A DNA stretch of 64,000 nucleotides from Elusimicrobiota bacterium (lineage in GTDB: Bacteria > Elusimicrobiota > Elusimicrobia > UBA1565). The DNA is taken from NCBI GenBank assembly GCA_043827405.1, contig JBDRPD010000039.1, positions 64,001-128,000 on the forward strand, in the 5' to 3' direction. The notes under the pieces are model-generated. The model did no database searches, had not been told where the DNA came from, and was given only the letters and a program-made list of their open reading frames with translations. Positions 3,525 through 16,335 of this stretch are shown here, in pieces; position 1 is the first letter of the stretch; every line of letters starts with the position of its first letter. The translations under genes were made by a program, and so were the position numbers.

Positions 3525-4697
3525 ATGAGGCTATTGCTGCCGCTTCTCGCGCTGTCGGCCGTGCTCTCGCTTCCGGCCGCCGCCGCGCCTCCCGAAGTGG
3601 ATACCCACATTCTCAACGCGATCCAGGCGATCTGGGCGATGGATTTTTCCGCCTCGGAGGCCAGCCTCGAGAAAGCGAAAGCGGCGCTGCCGGAGTACCC
3701 CTATCCCTATTTCGGCCAGGCCAACGTTACCTGGCTGCGCTATGTCTATGGTTCCCAGCGTACCGATACGGCGCTGCAGAAGAAATTCGAGGGAGAAGTC
3801 GAGCAGGCGGTCGCCGCGGCGGAAACCTGGCTCAGGGCTCATCCGCGCGACGCCGAGGGCTATCTCGCCCTGAGCGGGAGCTACGGCCTGCGCGCGCGCC
3901 TGGCGACGATCCAGAAGCGCTGGCTGCGGGCGCTGCTTGACGGCCGGAAGGCGGTCAAGTTTACGCGCCAGGCGCACCGCCTCGACCCGGAGCTCCATGA
4001 CGCGCTGCTGGGAGCGGGGATGTATGACTACTACGCGGATTCCCTGCCGCGTACGGTCAAGTTCTTCAGCAAGCTGATTCTCGGCGGCGACCGCGAGCGG
4101 GGAATCCGGTCGCTCAAGACCGTCGCAGAAAAGGGGCGCTACGCGAAGATCGCCGCGCAGCTGCTGCTTATCGAGGTGTATACCGAGGACAGGTGGGGCG
4201 CCCGGGACCCCGCGGAAGCGGTGCGGATCATCCAGGCGCTCCGCACGAGGTTTCCCAAGAGCCCGGTATTCCACAAGATCGAACAGGTATGCTTGTACGA
4301 GGCGGAGCGCTACGATGAAGTGTCGGCGAGCGCCCGCGAGTATACGCGGCGCATCGATGACGGCTGGGCATACTACCTGCCGCAGGACCGCGCCCGCATG
4401 TGCGTCACCGAAGGAACGGCGCGCTTCGCGCAGAACCGGCTCGAGCCGGCGCACGACGCCTATCAGCGCGCTGGCGCGCTGGCGGGAACGGCGGAGAAGC
4501 CGGAACGCTGGGGAGTTTGGGGACTGGTTCGCCTGGGGCAGGTGCGGGACCTGCTCAACCGCCGGCCGGAGGCGTTGCAGGCTTATGGCGCCGCGGGGGG
4601 GTTCGCGGATATTTGGGGCTTTCGCGCCGCGGCAAAGCGCGGGCTGCGCGCACCGCATCTTTCGAGCTCGGAGGTCGGCCAGCTGCCGCCCCCATGA
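3525..4697 (+). CDS. Exported TPR-like helical repeat protein
   Basis: Signal peptide; Ala-rich helical repeats with TPR-type turns (ALPEYPY, AHPRDAEGY, LDPELHDA). Confidence 0.75.
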   Translation: MRLLLPLLALSAVLSLPAAAAPPEVDTHILNAIQAIWAMDFSASEASLEKAKAALPEYPYPYFGQANVTWLRYVYGSQRTDTALQKKFEGEVEQAVAAAETWLRAHPRDAEGYLALSGSYGLRARLATIQKRWLRALLDGRKAVKFTRQAHRLDPELHDALLGAGMYDYYADSLPRTVKFFSKLILGGDRERGIRSLKTVAEKGRYAKIAAQLLLIEVYTEDRWGARDPAEAVRIIQALRTRFPKSPVFHKIEQVCLYEAERYDEVSASAREYTRRIDDGWAYYLPQDRARMCVTEGTARFAQNRLEPAHDAYQRAGALAGTAEKPERWGVWGLVRLGQVRDLLNRRPEALQAYGAAGGFADIWGFRAAAKRGLRAPHLSSSEVGQLPPP

Positions 4698-5530
4698 GCT
4701 TGCAGGAGCTGCGCGGAAAAACGGTATTGGTGACCGGCGCGTCGAGCGGCATCGGCCGCGCGGCCGCCCAGGCATTCGCCGCGCACGGCTGCCGCTTGGC
4801 GCTCGCCGCCCGGCGGGCGGATAAGCTGGCGTCGCTGGCCGAGAGCCTGGAAGCGAAGGGCGTCGAGACCCTCGTCCTGACCTGCGACGTGCGCGAGCGG
4901 GACCGGGCGCGGGAGGCGGTGGACGCGGTCATTCGCCGCTGGGGGCGCCTCGATATTCTGCTCAACAACGCGGGCGTGCATGACCTCGATATTTTTGAGC
5001 GGCAGGACCTGGACCTCATCGAAGACATGGTGCGAACCAATCTCTTCGGGACTATGTACACGACGCACGCGGCGCTCCCCGGCATGCGCCGGCAGGGAAG
5101 CGGTCATATCGTTAATGTGGCATCCATCGCGGGGCTTACCGGCCTGCCTTGGATGAGCGTTTACAGCGCCTCCAAATTCGCCGTCGTGGGTTTTACCGAG
5201 TCCCTGCGCCGGGAGCTGCGCGGCAGCGGCGTACGCCTGACCGCTTTTTGCCCGGGTACGGTAGATACGGCGATGGCCGCCGAACCGCTCAAGGACGCGG
5301 AGCTGAGAAAGACCGTTCAGCCTAAAACGCCCGAAGAGACTGCGGAGAGAATCGTCAGGGCCGTGCGCAGCGGTGCGCCGGAAGTGGTATTCGGAGAGGC
5401 TTCCGCTTTTGTTCTCCGTTTGGCCCGTTTCTTCCCGCGTTTTACCGACTGGTTCATGCATCGTTCACTCACGCGTCTTCACCCCGAGGTCCGCCGCCTG
5501 CTGCGGGCCGAGAGCGAGCGGCCGGGATGA
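4694..5530 (+). CDS. Short-chain dehydrogenase/reductase (SDR)
   Basis: TGASSGIG, NNAG and YSASK motifs; ATG 4694 overlaps the upstream stop (ATGA). Confidence 0.93.
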   Translation: MSLQELRGKTVLVTGASSGIGRAAAQAFAAHGCRLALAARRADKLASLAESLEAKGVETLVLTCDVRERDRAREAVDAVIRRWGRLDILLNNAGVHDLDIFERQDLDLIEDMVRTNLFGTMYTTHAALPGMRRQGSGHIVNVASIAGLTGLPWMSVYSASKFAVVGFTESLRRELRGSGVRLTAFCPGTVDTAMAAEPLKDAELRKTVQPKTPEETAERIVRAVRSGAPEVVFGEASAFVLRLARFFPRFTDWFMHRSLTRLHPEVRRLLRAESERPG

Positions 5531-6822
5531 GGGGGCTGCGCTTCGCACCGCTGCTGCTGGTTCTCTCCGTCTCGCTGGCGCAGGCGGCGGCGATGAAGGT
5601 TCCCAAGCGGCCCAGGGAATTTCCGCCCACCGGGCCAGCGCCGCAGGAGACCAAGCGCAACCCGCTCGACTTCATTATCCGCAACCTCCGAATGACGACG
5701 CCGGTCGGGCCGCTGTTGTTCATCCCTCTCGTCGACACCAACAAGGACATCGGCTTTCGTTCCGGAATCATGCCGATATGGGCGTTTCGCGACCGGCGCG
5801 GTGACGGCATCGCGGCCGTTCTCGCGCCGTCGGTGCGCTACAACCGCTTTTTGAAGACGGAGTATACCGGGCGGGCGTATTTTTTCCCGAACGAACGGGA
5901 CCTGGTCGTTGTTCGCGGCTCCTACTCCTCGGTCGTCAACCGGGAGATCTTCCTGCGCTATTTTACGCGGGAGTTTCTCGGCACCAATTTCCGGCTGAAC
6001 ACGGAGCTCCACCTCTTTCGCGACGGTAAGTTCTCCTTCTACGGTTTCGGTCCGGATTCGGTCGATGGGGATCAGGCCAACTTCTCCAAGTATAAAATCG
6101 GCGAGGAGGTGACGGTGGGCATCCCGACCGCCAAGCACTGGTTCCTCGAGCTCAGCCATTCCAACTTCCAGTACCAGCTCGGCGCCGGACCGATCACCAA
6201 CCTGCGGCCGCTCAGCGAGGTTTTTCCGAATCAGGCGATTTTGGGTTGGAAGCGCCTGGTCAGCCACGGGGCCGCGATCACCTACGATTCCACGGATCAT
6301 CCGTCCTTGCCGACGCGCGGCGGGCTGATTACTTTGTCGGCGCGTACCGCCCAGACCGCGCTGGGCAGCGACTATACCTGCCAGACATACGCCTCCCAGT
6401 TAAAGTACTACCAGAATATGGTGGATGGGAAGTATGTTACGGTTGCGAATCTGTACTTCGAGCAGCAGCGGGGGGATATCCTGCCGTTCTATGCCCAGAC
6501 CGTCGTCGGTGAGTCCACCGGGCTGCGGCTGGAAGGGGACGGCCGCTTCGTGGACCGGGGCCGCATGGTGTTCAATATCGAGGAGCGCATCCGCGTCGCG
6601 CGCTCGCCGCTGCTCAAGTTCTTCAGCGAGGTGGAGATCAGCCCCTTCCTCGACGTGGGGACCGTTTTCCCGCAGCCCGGCAAGCTGCGCTTTGATAACC
6701 TGCAGCCCGGCCCGGGCATCGCGGCGCGGGTTCTGCTGCGGCCTCAGGTGGTGATCACGGCCGACGTCGCCTGGCGGGGAAGCAAGAAGAACTTCATCCT
6801 GAAGGTGGACTATCCGTTTTAA
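5527..6822 (+). CDS. Omp85/BamA-TamA family outer-membrane beta-barrel without POTRA domains
   Basis: Signal peptide, amphipathic beta strands, YDSTD..PTRG and GLRLEGDGRFVD (loop-6-like) motifs, FLDVG, C-terminal Phe. Confidence 0.75.
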   Translation: MRGLRFAPLLLVLSVSLAQAAAMKVPKRPREFPPTGPAPQETKRNPLDFIIRNLRMTTPVGPLLFIPLVDTNKDIGFRSGIMPIWAFRDRRGDGIAAVLAPSVRYNRFLKTEYTGRAYFFPNERDLVVVRGSYSSVVNREIFLRYFTREFLGTNFRLNTELHLFRDGKFSFYGFGPDSVDGDQANFSKYKIGEEVTVGIPTAKHWFLELSHSNFQYQLGAGPITNLRPLSEVFPNQAILGWKRLVSHGAAITYDSTDHPSLPTRGGLITLSARTAQTALGSDYTCQTYASQLKYYQNMVDGKYVTVANLYFEQQRGDILPFYAQTVVGESTGLRLEGDGRFVDRGRMVFNIEERIRVARSPLLKFFSEVEISPFLDVGTVFPQPGKLRFDNLQPGPGIAARVLLRPQVVITADVAWRGSKKNFILKVDYPF

Positions 6823-7711
6823 AGCCGTGCCGCAGCTCGTCGTCGGCCCGTTCCTGGCGGTCGCGGGCGGCGAGCGTCCAGACGTTGTAAAACGATACCT
6901 CCGCCCAGAAGTACAGTTCGGGACGGCGGGCCGCCAGGGCGGCCGCGATAACGAGCAGCCGGCTGTTGGCGCCCAGCAGATTCCACCAGCGGATTACCGG
7001 CAGATTTAAGCCGCGGTACGCCGCCGCCGTCTTCTCATCGAGCGTGCCGTCGGGGCGGCGTGCCAGCAGTTCCTCACCGAGGCGCACATGGGAAGCGGCG
7101 AGCCGGCGCTGGCGCAGGGTATAGTCCCGGTGGCTCCAGGCCAGGAAGCGCGCCGCCCGGCCGCCCTCTTCGCTTGCGCCGGACTCCAGGTCGGATTTCG
7201 GGATGCGCCGCTGGTCCACGTATTCGGTGTACTCCGTCCGGTAGTAGTCAAAAAGACTCGCCTGTATGGAATGAGAGATGCCCGCCAGGGCGGCCAGCGT
7301 GAAGATGAGAACGGCCGAAGCATCCGGGTTGAGGCTCAGGTACTTGGCGGCGAGAGCGAGGTAGGTGGCGATAAATACGCAGTAGTCGGCGACGCCGTCG
7401 AGGATGCGGCCATGCAGGCTCGCGCTCTGCGTCATGCGCGCCAGCTGGCCGTCGGAGGCGTCGAAGACGCCGCTGAGCACCAGCAGGCCGAGGCCGGTCC
7501 ACATCCAGCTGTCCCAGTACAGCAGTCCGGCGCCGGCCACCCCCGTCGCCAGGCTGGCCGTCGTCAGCTGGTTGGGCGTCAGGCCCAGGCGCTTGCCGGC
7601 CAGCGCGAACAGCGCTCCCGCCGGCCGGTAGAAATAGATGTCCAGCACGCCTTCGCTCTCATAGGACTTGTAGGCGTTGTGCGCCTCGAGGGCGTCGCGC
7701 AGGGCTGTCAT
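6794..7711 (-). CDS. CDP-alcohol phosphatidyltransferase family protein
   Basis: TPNQLT and signature DASDGQLAR...GRILDGVAD; several TM helices. Confidence 0.92.
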   Translation of the reverse strand: MTALRDALEAHNAYKSYESEGVLDIYFYRPAGALFALAGKRLGLTPNQLTTASLATGVAGAGLLYWDSWMWTGLGLLVLSGVFDASDGQLARMTQSASLHGRILDGVADYCVFIATYLALAAKYLSLNPDASAVLIFTLAALAGISHSIQASLFDYYRTEYTEYVDQRRIPKSDLESGASEEGGRAARFLAWSHRDYTLRQRRLAASHVRLGEELLARRPDGTLDEKTAAAYRGLNLPVIRWWNLLGANSRLLVIAAALAARRPELYFWAEVSFYNVWTLAARDRQERADDELRHGFKTDSPPSG

Positions 7712-8676
7712 GGCCGGGGCGTTATGCTCCGGCGTTCATCGTAGTAGAGGGCCGTGCCGATGAGCGCCCATAGGATTTCCCGGGCATGGCGAATCAGGCC
7801 GAAGGCGAAGCCGGCGGTTTTCGGCAGCCCCAGCGCCGTGAAGATCGCGGTCTTGCTTATCTCCTGGGTCCCGGCTTTGGCCGGGACCATGAAGAATACT
7901 CCATCGACGGATGCCGAGAGCAGTTCGATGATCAGGGCCGTCTCCACTGAAACGGGCAGCCCCAGAAAACGCATGATCAAATAGGCTTCGAAGGCCCCCC
8001 ATAGGTAGGCCAGCGTGAAGCACAGGACGGAAAGAAGAAACAAGCCGGGGTGGCGCCGCAGGAAGACGCGCGCGTCCTGGTCCACCATCTTGACAACCGA
8101 CCGCCAGCCTTGGGGTTCCGGCTTCTTATGGCCGGTGTCCTTGCCCGAACGCCAGGCCCGGAGCTCGAGCGCGATGAGTAGTATGATCAGGACTCCCAGC
8201 AGCACCATTCCGGCATTGCGGCCGCCGCCGAATGCTTGCAGGGACAAGCGGCCGCTGGCGATAAGCCAGAGGCTGCCCGCGGAGACCAGCGCGAAGGCGA
8301 GGACCTGGGTAAACTTTGAGACCACCAAAGAAGAAAGCCGGGAGGCGATAGGATGATCCCGGCCGATCATGGAGGCTTTGGCCATCTCGCCCGCCACCAG
8401 GGCGGAGGGAATGAGGTAGTGGACTCCGTCGCCGGCGATGCGCAGCTTGAGCAGGCGCCAAAAAGAGGGCACCATGCTCCGGTGCTCCGGCAAAAAGGCC
8501 GCCGCCCAGCCCGCCGCGTTGAGAATATGGGCGACGATCTCCTGGGCGAAGATGAGAATGAAGCCGATGCCGACGCTGCGCAGGGCCCAGGCGACCGACG
8601 GCCACGGCATCTTCCAGGCCAATAGGCCGAATGCCAAGACGCCGACGGCGAGCAGAATCTTTTCTACGCGCTTCAT
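7708..8676 (-). CDS. Lysylphosphatidylglycerol-synthase TM (flippase-like) membrane protein
   Basis: About 8 TM helices; family-like motifs PSALVAGE and PAKAGTQE, and R-containing last helix. Confidence 0.8.
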   Translation of the reverse strand: MKRVEKILLAVGVLAFGLLAWKMPWPSVAWALRSVGIGFILIFAQEIVAHILNAAGWAAAFLPEHRSMVPSFWRLLKLRIAGDGVHYLIPSALVAGEMAKASMIGRDHPIASRLSSLVVSKFTQVLAFALVSAGSLWLIASGRLSLQAFGGGRNAGMVLLGVLIILLIALELRAWRSGKDTGHKKPEPQGWRSVVKMVDQDARVFLRRHPGLFLLSVLCFTLAYLWGAFEAYLIMRFLGLPVSVETALIIELLSASVDGVFFMVPAKAGTQEISKTAIFTALGLPKTAGFAFGLIRHAREILWALIGTALYYDERRSITPRP

Positions 8677-8677
8677 G

Positions 8678-9811
8678 TCAGGCGATGGCGCGCTCGTAGA
8701 TCCGGTACTTCTTGTACAGCTTGCCTTCCATGGCCTGCATGCCGCGATTCATTTTCTCGTTGTCTTCCAGAATCCAGCCGAGCTCTCCGTCCCAGCCCTT
8801 GCGCCGGGCCGTCAGCCAGGCTTCCCGGTAGAGCAGGACTTCCAGCCCCCGATTGCGGAAGGCTTTCCTGACGCCTAAAGTGATCAGGCGGACGCGGTCG
8901 ATCTTGCGGTAGTAGTACAGAAATTTCAGCGTCCCCCAAAGGCCCAGCTTGCCGTTGAGGCGGCGCAGGGCTTGGTTGACGTCCGGCAGCAGGATGCTGA
9001 AAGCGACGGTTTCTCCGTCGACATCGGCGAAGTGAATCGCTTCAGGGTCGACGATTGGCTTGAGTTTTTCCGCCATCAGATCCAGCTCCGCCGGCGTCAT
9101 CGGCGTAAAGCCCCAGTTTTTTTCCCAGGCCTCGTTGTAGATGTCGCGGACTATCTGCAGCTCTTCCTCCCAGCGCGCCATGCGCATCGAGCGGATGCGG
9201 ACGCCTTCCTTTTTCGCCACCCGCTCCGCGAGATAGCGAATGCGCTTGGGGATGGGATCCGTGGAAATGAGGAGATAGGAATAGAGATCCTTGATCTTGG
9301 TTAGGCCGGCGGACTCCAGGAGCGCGGAGTAATAAGGAGGGTTGTAGGGCATCATGATAGCGGGGGGATCGTCGAAGCCTTCGATCAGCAGCCCGCACTC
9401 CTCGTTAAACGAGGGGCTGGCGGGGCCGCGCATGACGCTCATGCCCTTGTCTTTGAGCCAGGTGCGGGCGGCGTCGAGCAGCGCTTGCGCGGTTTTCTCA
9501 TCGTCGACGCATTCGAAGAAGCCGAAGTAGCCGCACTTCTCATGGTGGAAATCGTTATAGGCGCGGTCGACCACGGCCGCGCAGCGTCCGACGATTCGGC
9601 CGTCCGCCACCGCCAGGAACAGCTCGCGTTCCGCGTGCTGCCAAAACGGATTGGCCTCCGTCAGCAGGTCGCGGACTTCGGTTTTAAGGGGGGGCACCCA
9701 TGGCGGGCTGTCGCGGTAGATTTCCCAAGGCAGGTCGATAAAGCCGGTGAGCTGCTGCGCATTCCGTACGGCCTCAACGGATGCTTCCGCCGTCCGGCGC
9801 TCAGGCGGCAA
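8678..9811 (-). CDS. GNAT-fold N-acyltransferase, bacterial ceramide synthase (bCerS)-like
   Basis: FIDLPWEIY..PPWVPPL, GYFGFFE, MMPYNPPYY, NWGFTPMT, LPDVN and WILEDN motifs of the YghO/bCerS-like GNAT family; overlaps the spt stop codon. Confidence 0.8.
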   Translation of the reverse strand: MPPERRTAEASVEAVRNAQQLTGFIDLPWEIYRDSPPWVPPLKTEVRDLLTEANPFWQHAERELFLAVADGRIVGRCAAVVDRAYNDFHHEKCGYFGFFECVDDEKTAQALLDAARTWLKDKGMSVMRGPASPSFNEECGLLIEGFDDPPAIMMPYNPPYYSALLESAGLTKIKDLYSYLLISTDPIPKRIRYLAERVAKKEGVRIRSMRMARWEEELQIVRDIYNEAWEKNWGFTPMTPAELDLMAEKLKPIVDPEAIHFADVDGETVAFSILLPDVNQALRRLNGKLGLWGTLKFLYYYRKIDRVRLITLGVRKAFRNRGLEVLLYREAWLTARRKGWDGELGWILEDNEKMNRGMQAMEGKLYKKYRIYERAIA

Positions 9812-11021
9812 TCGAGACGCCGTCGCGTTCGGGGCGGGGAAGGAGCCCGGCTTTCTTGCCGCAGTGCTCGAAGAGCTCGAGCGCGCGATCGATATGCTCG
9901 GCGGTATGGGTGGCCATCAGCGTGTTCCGGATGAGGGAATGCCCGGGAAGCACGGCCGGGGTGATGATGGGATTGTTGAATATCCCGGCGTCGAACGCCA
10001 GCCGCCAGAAGCGGAATACCTCTTCATCGTCCCCGATTTCGATGGGGACGATAGGGGTCTCGGTGACGCCGGTGGAGAGGCCCAAAGACTGCAGGCCGGT
10101 ACGCAGGCGCTGCGCATTATCCCACAGCCGCGCTCTCCGTTCCGGCTCGTCCTGGATGAAATCGATGGCCCGGGAGATCGCCGCCACGCAGGCGGGCGGG
10201 AGGGCGGCCGAGAACATCATGGATCGGGCGTTGAGCTGGATGTAGTGGATGACGTCCTTGTCGCCGGCCACGAAACCGCCGACGGAGCCGAGCGCTTTGG
10301 AGCAGGTGCCCACGATCAGGTCGACCTCGTTGTTCTCCAGGCCGAAATGCTCGCAGGTTCCCCGGCCGTTAAGGCCCAGGACGCCGGTGGAGTGGGCGTC
10401 GTCGAGCACGATGCGAGCGCCGTGCCTGCGGGCTGCCGCGACGATTCCCGGGAGATCGGCGATGTCGCCTTCCATGCTGAAGACCCCGTCCACGGCGATG
10501 AGCTTGCCCCGGTCCGCGGGGATGCCGCGCAAAATCTGCTCCAGGTGGTCCATGTCGTTGTGCCGGTAGCGCAGGGTCTCGCCCCAGGAAAGCCGGCCGC
10601 CGTCGATGATGGAAGCGTGATCCCCTTTGTCTACGATGACCACGTCCTTGCGTCCGGCCAGACAAGAGAGGACTCCGAGGTTCGTCTGGTAGCCGGTGGA
10701 AAAGATCAGGGCCGCCTCGCGGCGCTTGAATTTGGCGAGCTTCAGCTCCGTCTCATGATGGAGCTCCATCGTGCCGTTGAGGAAGCGCGAGCCGCCGCAG
10801 CCGGTACCCCAGTGCGCGACGGCGTCCTGGGCCGCCCGTTTCATCTCGGGATCACCGGCCAGGCCCAGGTAGTTGTTGGAGCCCAGCATGATGAGCTCGC
10901 GGTCGCCGACTTTAATCTGCGGTCCTTGGGCGGAGGCGAGAGGGATGAAGTAGGGAAAGATGTCGCGCTCCATAAGGCGCTTCGCGGTGTTAAAGCTGTA
11001 GCACTTGTCGAATATATCCAT
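9801..11021 (-). CDS. spt: Serine palmitoyltransferase (alpha-oxoamine synthase family)
   Basis: GSNNYLGL, GTGCGGSRFLNGT, DHASIIDG, DGVFSMEGD, DDAH and PLP-lysine GTCSKALG motifs. The sequence pattern matches Bacteroidetes-type SPT better than KBL or BioF, and a bCerS-like gene is adjacent. Confidence 0.82.
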   Translation of the reverse strand: MDIFDKCYSFNTAKRLMERDIFPYFIPLASAQGPQIKVGDRELIMLGSNNYLGLAGDPEMKRAAQDAVAHWGTGCGGSRFLNGTMELHHETELKLAKFKRREAALIFSTGYQTNLGVLSCLAGRKDVVIVDKGDHASIIDGGRLSWGETLRYRHNDMDHLEQILRGIPADRGKLIAVDGVFSMEGDIADLPGIVAAARRHGARIVLDDAHSTGVLGLNGRGTCEHFGLENNEVDLIVGTCSKALGSVGGFVAGDKDVIHYIQLNARSMMFSAALPPACVAAISRAIDFIQDEPERRARLWDNAQRLRTGLQSLGLSTGVTETPIVPIEIGDDEEVFRFWRLAFDAGIFNNPIITPAVLPGHSLIRNTLMATHTAEHIDRALELFEHCGKKAGLLPRPERDGVSIAA

Positions 11022-11036
11022 GGGTCGTCGGCCGCC

Positions 11037-11591
11037 TTAGCGGCGCCTATTTTTCTTTTTGGCTTTCTTCTTGAGGACCTTGATCGCCCGGCGGTACTTC
11101 TTGCGGATATGCTTCATCATCTGTTCCGGAATTTCGGGGGGCTCTAAGTAAGCGCTGTTGCGGTAGGTGGAGCTCATGACGAGGTCCCCCGTCTTGACAT
11201 CCACCATGCGCAAGGATACCGAGTGGATTTCGCCGCTTTCGCTGCCCAGTACGCTGTTGATGGTCCCGAAGATCACGGCGTCCACCTTGGCGCTCTGTCC
11301 CAGGAGCTGGAGATCCTCGGGCTTGAGGGCGTCGGTGTTGAAGTCGATTTTCTGCGTTTTCAGGATTCCCTCGAGCAGCCCGCGCTCAACGACCATAAAG
11401 CCGCTGGACATGAAGCCGGTCGCGAAGGCGTCGGCCATGGCGGGGCCGCCGTTGTTCTGGGACTGAAAGGGCATGACGGCGATGCGCTTATAGTCGCCGA
11501 TCGGCACGCTCTCGGGGATGGTGGTTCGCGTGGGACTGGAAAAACAGCCCGCAAGCAGGACGGGAAATATCAATAAAGGCGCGCGTCTCAT
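11037..11591 (-). CDS. Lipoprotein, CsgG/GNA1162/TolB-N-like alpha/beta fold
   Basis: Lipobox LLAGC; IAVMPF, VVER, VDAVIFGTI and LRMVDVKTG motifs; Lys/Arg-rich tail. Confidence 0.7.
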   Translation of the reverse strand: MRRAPLLIFPVLLAGCFSSPTRTTIPESVPIGDYKRIAVMPFQSQNNGGPAMADAFATGFMSSGFMVVERGLLEGILKTQKIDFNTDALKPEDLQLLGQSAKVDAVIFGTINSVLGSESGEIHSVSLRMVDVKTGDLVMSSTYRNSAYLEPPEIPEQMMKHIRKKYRRAIKVLKKKAKKKNRRR

Positions 11592-14574: not shown

Positions 14575-16335
14575 CTAGGAAGAGCCGGTCGGGGCTTTCG
14601 CCTCGGCCGGCTCTGCTTTGCCGCTGTCTTTGTAGCGCTTGACCGCGCGCAGGGTCAGAAAGTACAGCGGGACCGCCAAGGCCGCGCCGAGGATCAGGCC
14701 GCCGAGCATGGCCGTGCCGAAAACCTGCAGCCCCACGTCCAGAAGCGCATTGATCCCCGCGATCAGCCCTTCATTCGCCGCGCCGAGCAGGCCGGCCAGG
14801 GCTTCGGAGGCCGCCGGGGCCGCGGGGTTGAACCAGCTGCCGATGGTGTATTCCAGCCAGTAGAAGGGCGCCAGCGTCAGCGGGTTGGTGATCCAGATCA
14901 TGCTCATCGCGGCCGCGGTGCTCGCGCGCAGCGGCTTGCTGAGCGCCAGGATCATCAGCCACTGCAGGCCCACGGTCGGCGTCATGGCGATGAGGATTCC
15001 CAGCGCCACCCCGCGCGCGATGGTCCGCGCGGAAGTTTCATGCAGCAGCGCGTTCTTGAGCGCGTTGCGCCAGGTGTCGCGGACGCGCGTCCAGCTCCAG
15101 ATGCGGGCGCGCTTGGGGGTCTTGAGAGTCTTCTTGCCGGCCTCGAAGCCGACTTCAGCCAGGATTTCCAGCAGGGCTTTGCGGACCCGGCGGTCGAATC
15201 CGGCGGCCTCCTGCGACATGATCGACAGGGCTTTCTCGATCGACATCCCCTCGCGGTAGGGGCGGTTCTCCATCAAGGCGTCGAAGACGTCGGCGACGGC
15301 TACGATGCGCCCCCATTTGCTTATCTGCCGTCCGCGCTTGCCGAACGGATAGCCTGAGCCGTCCAGGCGCTCGTGATGCTCGAGCGCGACTCTCGCCGCC
15401 AGCTTGCGCAAATCCTTCGGCAGGTGGGAGAGCTCGGACAGCATCTGGGAACCGATCAGCGAATGACGCTTGATGGTCGCGAACTCCTCGTCGTTGAGCT
15501 TGCCGGGCTTGTTGATCGTCTCCGTGATCACCGGTTCCGTCTTGCCGAAATCGTGGTAGGTCGCGGCCCAGGCCAGGCGCTCGGCGAACAGCGGCGTGAC
15601 GCCCATCTTGAGCGCTATCAGCCCGCTCAGCAGGCCGACGCGCAGGGAGTGCCGGCCGGTGCCGGCGTCCCGGGTTTCAATGCGCTTGATCATCGCGTTC
15701 TTGAGCTGGATGCGGCGCCGGTCATGGTCATCGCGAGCATCCAGGCCGCGGTTTGCCAGGAGATTCCAGGAGCGCGATAGCACGCTCTCATAGCGCTCGT
15801 CCTTGATATTGTCGCGGCCGTAGATCGAGGGCTCGTACCAGGAATGGGCCAAGGCGGCTAAAGGGCTCGCGGCGTTTTGTGCGCCGTCAAAAAAGGCGTT
15901 GAGCTCCGCGGATTCCGGCAGCGCGCCGTTCTTCTTGCTAAGGCGAGTCTCGGCGGTCTGGCGGACTGAGCGTCCCTGTCCCGCCGCCCCGGGTACAGGG
16001 GATGCGGTGACGGGCTTGACCTTCGCCGCGCTGTTTCGGGCATGAGCGGGAAGTACCTGCGGCGTTTCGATAACTTGGGTAGGGGCAAAGCGCGGTTTAA
16101 GATCGGGGCTCTGGTTGGGAAGCGGCAGGTTCTCGAGGACGGGGAGAAGCAAGGTGCTGCCGAAGGTCAGCGCCTTCAGCGTGCTGTGCTTGTGCGCGCC
16201 GGAGGCCGCGCCGGCCGCCGCCGCGGCGCCGCCGCTTACGGGCGCCTGCACAACCGGCAATTTCCCGATATTCGCGAAGGCCGGGACGTTGAGCGCGAAG
16301 ATCAGCGTCAGCGCTACGATCCGCGATTTCATCAT
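14575..16335 (-). CDS. Signal peptide + low-complexity leader + HD-GYP domain + DUF2062-like membrane domain
   Basis: HSLRV, YHDFGK, KPGKL, HHERLDGSGYP, ADVFDAL and RPYR motifs; C-terminal IARGVALG..P...WITNPLT TM region. Confidence 0.85.
   Translation of the reverse strand: MMKSRIVALTLIFALNVPAFANIGKLPVVQAPVSGGAAAAAGAASGAHKHSTLKALTFGSTLLLPVLENLPLPNQSPDLKPRFAPTQVIETPQVLPAHARNSAAKVKPVTASPVPGAAGQGRSVRQTAETRLSKKNGALPESAELNAFFDGAQNAASPLAALAHSWYEPSIYGRDNIKDERYESVLSRSWNLLANRGLDARDDHDRRRIQLKNAMIKRIETRDAGTGRHSLRVGLLSGLIALKMGVTPLFAERLAWAATYHDFGKTEPVITETINKPGKLNDEEFATIKRHSLIGSQMLSELSHLPKDLRKLAARVALEHHERLDGSGYPFGKRGRQISKWGRIVAVADVFDALMENRPYREGMSIEKALSIMSQEAAGFDRRVRKALLEILAEVGFEAGKKTLKTPKRARIWSWTRVRDTWRNALKNALLHETSARTIARGVALGILIAMTPTVGLQWLMILALSKPLRASTAAAMSMIWITNPLTLAPFYWLEYTIGSWFNPAAPAASEALAGLLGAANEGLIAGINALLDVGLQVFGTAMLGGLILGAALAVPLYFLTLRAVKRYKDSGKAEPAEAKAPTGSS

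Follow-up and report, generated by a model that had tools for sequence, protein, structure and literature searches.

The window analysed here is a 64,000-nucleotide (nt) stretch of contig JBDRPD010000039.1 (positions 64,001 to 128,000) from a groundwater-type Elusimicrobiota bacterium; it carries a compact row of five genes that we predict to direct synthesis of a sphingolipid. The five open reading frames (ORFs) lie on the minus strand with gaps of 15, -11, 1 and -4 nt. They encode a lipoprotein of 184 amino acids (aa) with a CsgG-like fold and a LAGC lipobox (11037-11591; weak PF03783 match, E 1e-6); an Spt-like alpha-oxoamine synthase of the Bacteroidota/Myxococcota type (9801-11021; 406 aa, PF00155, pyridoxal phosphate (PLP) lysine K242); a tandem GNAT N-acyltransferase of the YghO/bCerS type (8678-9811; 377 aa, TTG start, weak GNAT match in Pfam); a PF03706 membrane protein, MprF-flippase-like or HpnL-like (7708-8676; 322 aa, E 1e-20, TIGR03476 under its cut-off); and a CDP-alcohol phosphotransferase (6794-7711). 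The latter was assigned from PF01066, its homologues and the neighbours at their loci to a ~300-aa family of Bacteroidota 'alternative inositol lipid' clusters. A preliminary description of this DNA had reported the five packed genes, the gaps and the motifs GTGCGGSRFLNGT, GTCSK, WVPPL, GFFE, MMPYNPPYY, NWGF and WILEDN; all of these were confirmed in the ORFs and translations. Its placement of the organism in Elusimicrobiota also held in the AlaS check that it proposed, where all 29 organism-named matches among the 120 homologues listed were from Elusimicrobia/Elusimicrobiota.

The TTG start of the GNAT gene overlaps the stop codon of the synthase gene and is the sole in-frame ATG, GTG or TTG ahead of the conserved region; locus L017 shows the identical overlap. 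It is the spacing that suggests co-transcription of the five genes; scans of the locus for promoters and terminators gave results at chance level. The GC content of the region (0.61-0.64) matches that of the genome (0.633), which has 4.33 Mb and is 98% complete.

By its matches and its position in trees the synthase is Spt-like, apart from Kbl and BioF, as the preliminary description had claimed; the phylogeny was the check by which that description was ready to see the claim fail. The best PDB matches were entries 3A2B/8GUH (409.6 bits), the serine palmitoyltransferase (SPT) of Sphingobacterium multivorum (SmSPT; PMC10196870). Lower scores were obtained for a BioF/Kbl enzyme (298 bits), other SPTs (286-291), the cysteate acyltransferase 28EH (237), Kbl (224-247) and BioF (134-195). 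A best match to the Sphingobacterium enzyme fits the account in PMC9386255 that SPTs of Bacteroidetes and deltaproteobacteria form one subgroup. In a 41-row tree with one named Spt (E. coli BL21), the synthase was placed in a 31-row clade (100/99) together with this Spt and GNAT-adjacent synthases; a second alpha-oxoamine synthase paralogue of the genome (contig C62) grouped with E. coli Kbl (93/89). Approximately unbiased (AU) tests on a 19-row set rejected the grouping of the synthase with Kbl (p 6.8e-5) as well as with BioF (p 1.7e-5). Of 100 Spt-like rows, 97 carry the motif SR[FLY]LNG, which none of the ten Kbl-like rows has. At the mapped SmSPT site, 23 of 29 positions are identical. All seven PLP/substrate residues (His138, Asp210, His213, Lys244, Ser81, Met271 and Asn52) are kept, many of them being common to the wider family, and so are Thr241 and Ser243; the six differing positions include A79G and S53N beside the substrate. 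Serine is very probably the amino acid used.

The assignment of the GNAT to the bCerS type likewise stood. The protein has, over its length (373 aa), 38% identity to E. coli BL21 YghO (E 3e-81), and BL21 yghO lies inside the BL21 spt cluster. In PMC9386255, YghO is listed alongside Caulobacter CC_1154 as the N-acyltransferase, with ECD_02850 as a protein that 'might be' the enzyme. The structure model (predicted local distance difference test score 92.5) has a tandem-GNAT fold, with a template modelling (TM) score of 0.62 to tandem GNATs; a PDB sequence search returned a single weak match. We analysed the best 80 of 531 confirmed GNAT relatives in GTDB contigs. An alpha-oxoamine synthase was present in 62 of these 80 loci and was directly upstream in 56, so the synthase-GNAT order is not due to chance; an NAD-epimerase of CerR type was found in 47. 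The loci span Myxococcota, Thermodesulfobacteriota, Bacteroidota, Acidobacteriota and others; spt-bcerS is therefore an ordinary order. N-acylation by the GNAT is, by these comparisons, highly likely, and a ceramide core made of Spt and bCerS is only marginally less so.

A further observation concerns the same 80 loci: in 22 of them a PAP2_3 (Aur1/IPC-synthase-like) gene is located beside spt-bcerS (e.g. L032:5081-5974). These loci are mostly from Thermodesulfobacteriota, Acidobacteriota and Myxococcota, and may present another head-group route.

For the transferase, 11 homologues are close (56-71% identity), and a wider family at 30-40% carries Ignavibacteriaceae and Bacteroidales names. A first scan of metagenomes, run with the transferase sequence alone, gave no matches; the family set used here contains 80 metagenome loci, 53 of them with at least 8 kb. 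Among these 53 loci we found genes for HAD (40), ATP-grasp-like (41), NTP transferase (40), PF03706 (23) and MIPS (inositol-phosphate synthase; 22) proteins. With HAD, NTP transferase, PF03706 and MIPS as neighbours, the neighbourhoods match the 'alternative inositol lipid cluster' of PMC9246714. The ATP-grasp gene, present in 53 of all 80 loci, has no mention in the available portion of that paper. In two loci, L269 and L280, the order is spt-bcerS-cerR-x-NTP transferase-ATP-grasp-transferase-PF03706-HAD. A PF03706 gene also follows bcerS in genomes G011, G016 and G244; its product could flip the lipid or act as a scaffold.

The window's transferase type was detected in 12 of 201 genomes of the class. 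Among the nine other class genomes with a strong transferase match, eight have the GNAT, the exception being G446 (82% complete). MIPS was found in all four tested genomes with the transferase and was not found in G106, which is without it. The window genome holds the 'alternative inositol' gene set (transferase family, MIPS, NTP transferase and HAD); the genes do not cluster with MIPS at a single locus, as the transferase and PF03706 genes are on contig C39 (the contig of the window) and the donor genes on contig C34. The C34 row (C34:24584-32641; L308:6585-14642) consists of genes for HAD, NTP transferase, ATP-grasp, class-III aminotransferase, Gfo/Idh/MocA dehydrogenase, CDP-alcohol transferase and MIPS. 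Our reading is that C34 is an inositol glycerolipid module common to the order, whose donor would also serve ceramide by way of another transferase, that of the window. We consider it probable that the window's transferase serves a sphingolipid; that the C34 operon makes an inositol or aminoinositol donor is slightly favoured. Aminoinositol, raised by the aminotransferase and the dehydrogenase, is speculation. Taken by itself, the order-wide C34 row is a candidate for an undescribed aminoinositol phospholipid pathway; its transferase ORF also has a weak nucleotide-cyclase match.

On the strength of the family assignments, the gene order, the co-occurrence and the trees, we favour, on balance, the prediction that the row is an operon for a sphingolipid with a phospho-head group; an inositol-type phosphoceramide as its product is favoured a little less firmly. 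The PLP enzyme would join serine to a long acyl chain, and the YghO-type GNAT would add a second chain as an amide, giving 3-oxo-ceramide. The CDP-alcohol transferase and its PF03706 partner would then add a phosphate head group, likely of inositol type, and move the lipid across the membrane. The 3-keto group would be reduced by another enzyme (a convergent dehydrogenase or a diverged epimerase, described below) or left in place. The preliminary description had proposed head-group-modified ceramides from a self-contained operon. The head-group step is probable; self-containment did not stand, given that the genome has no clear CerR, that the likely donor genes are on C34 and that the lipoprotein is not conserved. 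The lipoprotein has no relative in any of the 80 GNAT loci and none upstream in G016; it is probably a passenger outside the pathway.

No CerR lies at the locus, and a profile search of the whole genome found no clear one. With a profile of locus-linked CerR-like proteins the best genome match had 192.6 bits, vs ~360-500 bits for the members and 216 for the BL21 protein. In alignment A1, where 14 candidates were scored per genome, the window genome reached 175 bits, a value inside the span (145-217) that covers most relatives without spt; two further genomes without spt scored higher (324 and 234 bits), and all 43 genomes of families f4 and f5 had an unlinked match at 226-271 bits. The genomes G011, G016 and G244, which share spt-bcerS-PF03706, scored 184, 184 and 144, and their matches grouped with HpnA. 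An epimerase on contig C66 was tried as CerR and rejected; it is HpnA (442 bits, over the cut-off). Another, on contig C50 beside a GMC oxidoreductase, forms a long branch without a resolved place in the tree and may be a diverged CerR.

A block of plus-strand genes converges on the row. It begins with a secreted TPR protein (3525-4697; weak PF07719 match; in the same place in G011 and G016), followed by a classical short-chain dehydrogenase (SDR; 4697-5530; PF00106) and an Omp85-family barrel protein (5527-6822; PF01103). The SDR has orthologues in G011 and G016 (64-65% identity), and in family f1 close ones occur along with the cluster (3 of 17 genomes). Relatives at 47-56% also occur in spt-negative genomes, in an LplA-SDR-GreA-QueG-Omp85 setting that G244's copy shares, and the PDB matches are generic SDRs. 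As a dedicated 3-keto reductase the SDR was not accepted, since its relatives occur without spt; we keep it as a weak lead, a weak candidate by analogy with BT_0972 of Bacteroides thetaiotaomicron. G011 and G016 also have the Omp85 protein together with the cluster. There (L204:494-2779 and L172:5096-7447, respectively) an in-frame fusion links Omp85, through a signal-peptide-like stretch, to a fatty-acid-desaturase domain that has three His boxes; no desaturase of this kind is present in the window genome. The same desaturase family occurs near spt/bcerS genes in L096 and L216, and it may act as a sphingolipid desaturase or hydroxylase.

Several findings weigh against the predicted pathway, starting with the CerR results above. 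The synthase passed no NCBIfam model; the top one, SerpalmtaseCFB (NF047600), gave 496 bits, below the curated cut-off of 640, and the protein thus stays outside this equivalog. It also has GTCSK where SPT has GTFSK. The bCerS reference used was E. coli YghO, an orthologue by annotation, not Caulobacter bCerS. The 'alternative inositol lipid cluster' was described in species making inositol phosphoceramide, with functions that PMC9246714 presents as predicted, not confirmed. The ATP-grasp gene of C34 recurs in the order, where 87 of 101 genomes have it and the majority of these are without spt, and C34-type rows occur in three spt-negative examples; as the C34 row has its own CDP-alcohol transferase and is widespread without spt, this donor operon needs no sphingolipid. 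Among the 80 transferase-family loci, a bCerS-type GNAT was found in six and a synthase in three, and in other members of the class (f4, f5, f37) the transferase lies beside unrelated genes, not next to spt.

These last two observations speak for an alternative in which Spt and the GNAT make ceramide, and the downstream pair acts on glycerolipids (CDP-inositol plus diacylglycerol giving phosphatidylinositol, as proposed for B. vulgatus) or carries a non-inositol head group, the ceramide being left bare or modified by another enzyme. PMC9246714 does propose that transferases of this type use diacylglycerol as acceptor and that the ceramide step falls to the HAD protein. We hold this alternative possible but doubtful: a second transferase, common to spt-negative relatives, is already inside the C34 donor operon, and within the order the window's transferase type was found only together with spt-bcerS, to which it is overlapped. 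Still bolder than our prediction, and unlikely as a whole, is a scenario in which Elusimicrobiota were ancestral sphingolipid makers, down to reduced genomes of 0.5-0.8 Mb, the present lineage being CerR-free with the neighbouring SDR or no enzyme handling the 3-keto group, and a dedicated transferase would put inositol or aminoinositol phosphate straight onto ceramide.

The remaining alternatives concern the core. Use of alanine, glycine or cysteate would lead to 1-deoxy-sphingolipids or capnine-type sulfonolipids acylated by the GNAT; according to PMC10196870, SPTs accept alanine and glycine weakly, and the six altered site residues and the score below the curated cut-off point the same way. 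The much lower 28EH score than that of SmSPT (237 vs 410 bits) and the conserved Asn52, Ser81, His138, Thr241, Ser243 and Met271 make such a substrate quite improbable. A head-group transferase, moreover, requires the 1-hydroxyl. Scores of 415 bits to TIGR01825 (BioF/Kbl family) and 385 bits to TIGR00858 (BioF) would suit a Kbl or BioF among unrelated neighbours, an idea largely refuted by the trees and hardly credible: both scores are under their cut-offs, the AU tests reject both groupings, the genome has a separate Kbl-like paralogue, and synthase and GNAT co-occur tightly. Nor do we give much more than nominal weight to a split MprF, with the GNAT and the PF03706 protein aminoacylating phospholipids. 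In its favour, the membrane region of MprF is what PF03706 describes, and the fold matches of the GNAT include soluble domains of MprF, at a TM of 0.38-0.41 that stands against 0.62 for tandem GNATs. Against it are the identity to YghO and the Pfam and NCBIfam listings for the GNAT, which contain no family of the MprF catalytic domain; of the 80 loci of GNAT relatives, 56 have spt directly upstream, and one has the window's PF03706 type.

The preliminary description had called the lineage unexpected and knew of no characterised sphingolipid pathway with this gene order; a wider survey did not support the first claim. In a sample of 401 genomes of the phylum (kin not independent, sampling uneven), a hand count gave 279 with both genes, usually adjacent, 12 with the GNAT only, one with Spt only and 109 with neither. 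Thus the GNAT was present in 291 genomes, of which 279 also hold the Spt-like gene, and the latter in 280. Spt-like genes were called at an E-value line of 1e-140, set after seeing that the best NF047600 E-values form two groups; all matches in the 401 genomes missed the NF047600 cut-off. By family, the GNAT is present in 116 of 118 (f4), 47 of 47 (f5) and 76 of 89 (f16) genomes; judging from size and rank, f4 and f16 are likely to be the gut families Elusimicrobiaceae and Endomicrobiaceae. Only the window's order is for the most part without the genes (GNAT in 2 of 59 other genomes; none in f6-f10). We retrieved 20 stretches surrounding the GNAT; spt was adjacent in 18, of which nine also had cerR. 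As for the gene order, spt-bcerS is common in many phyla, and a ceramide core linked to these CDP-alcohol transferase and PF03706 families is already present in L269 and L280. We predict that Elusimicrobiota are overlooked sphingolipid makers, with the enzyme pair common across the phylum.

The window Spt nests among proteins of the same class (100/99), as does the GNAT with weaker support (82/93); this suggests descent of the pair within the class and its loss across most of the order. Recent horizontal transfer into the genome is not supported, given the ordinary GC content and the same nesting. Genome G393 of the same order carries a different spt-bcerS-cerR version. In 0.7-0.8 Mb genomes of f16 (G193, L134; G187, L135) cerR-spt-bcerS is intact; in G062 (L133; 99% complete) cerR and bcerS are kept, no spt was found and the lpxC match is partial. 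Replacement of lipopolysaccharide by sphingolipid in the reduced f16 genomes was considered and dropped: LpxC was found in 77 of 89, and among ten g80 genomes without LpxC, all incomplete, five keep spt and bcerS and five are without both, with no clear pattern. A further bCerS-type GNAT, located apart from spt, is present in some f5 genomes (G094, L143; G100, L103) and groups with proteins of the other class.

Two observations stand apart. Hopanoid genes (squalene-hopene cyclase, HpnH-like radical SAM, HpnA and HpnG-like) are located at G000:C66:66850-71800 (L168:6850-11795); hopanoids and sphingolipids in one bacterium could mimic the sterol-sphingolipid pairing. In the window, 14575-16335 encodes a fusion of an HD-domain protein with DUF2062 that has a long N-terminal leader of low complexity.

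For a specialist the operon by itself would hold no surprise: the pathway is known, and PMC11334938 has already extended predictions of Spt-like genes to about 40 phyla. What is new is the reach of the pathway across the phylum. The main text of PMC11334938 (figure and supplement being outside this scope) does not name Elusimicrobiota, and that of the Endomicrobia genome paper PMC11257099 contains neither 'sphingo' nor 'ceramide'. Literature searches with the phylum name and sphingolipid terms, which left some key sources uncovered, found no publication on sphingolipid synthesis in Elusimicrobiota. Nearly all genomes have the pair in most families of the phylum, which includes cultured members and protist endosymbionts; this makes the prediction testable by simple lipidomics. 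With the ceramide core and a still unconfirmed transferase for an inositol head group in one unit, the operon offers a compact reconstitution set and a natural test of CerR dispensability. If the CerR-free scenario with direct transfer to ceramide were true, it would provide the first direct acceptor assignment for an 'alternative inositol cluster' transferase.

Among known systems, the Spt, bCerS and CerR pathway (Caulobacter CC_1162/CC_1154/CC_1164; E. coli BL21 ECD_02854/yghO/ECD_02852) shares with the window the Spt-clade synthase and a full-length YghO homologue. For the genomes covered in PMC11324152, cerS is placed in an operon of its own, whereas here spt and bcerS overlap; the window locus is also without adjacent acpR, aasR, cerR or second lptFG. 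The closest structural relative of the synthase is SmSPT, from which it differs in the GTCSK motif and in its score under the NF047600 cut-off. The 3-ketosphinganine reductase BT_0972 is a classical SDR (PMC9278070), likened here by family description to the window SDR, which is also near spt-bcerS in a genome with no clear CerR; in contrast, the window SDR has relatives without spt and generic PDB matches. Finally, the 'alternative inositol lipid cluster' of Bacteroides vulgatus and Prevotella comprises, as given in PMC9246714, MIPS, NTP transferase, CDP-alcohol phosphatidyltransferase, HAD and PF03706 genes. The window's transferase family clusters with such genes, a likeness drawn by family and not by B. 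vulgatus sequences. Here the set is divided between two loci, the transferase and PF03706 genes being coupled to spt-bcerS, and the C34 operon adds to it a class-III aminotransferase, a Gfo/Idh/MocA dehydrogenase and a second transferase.

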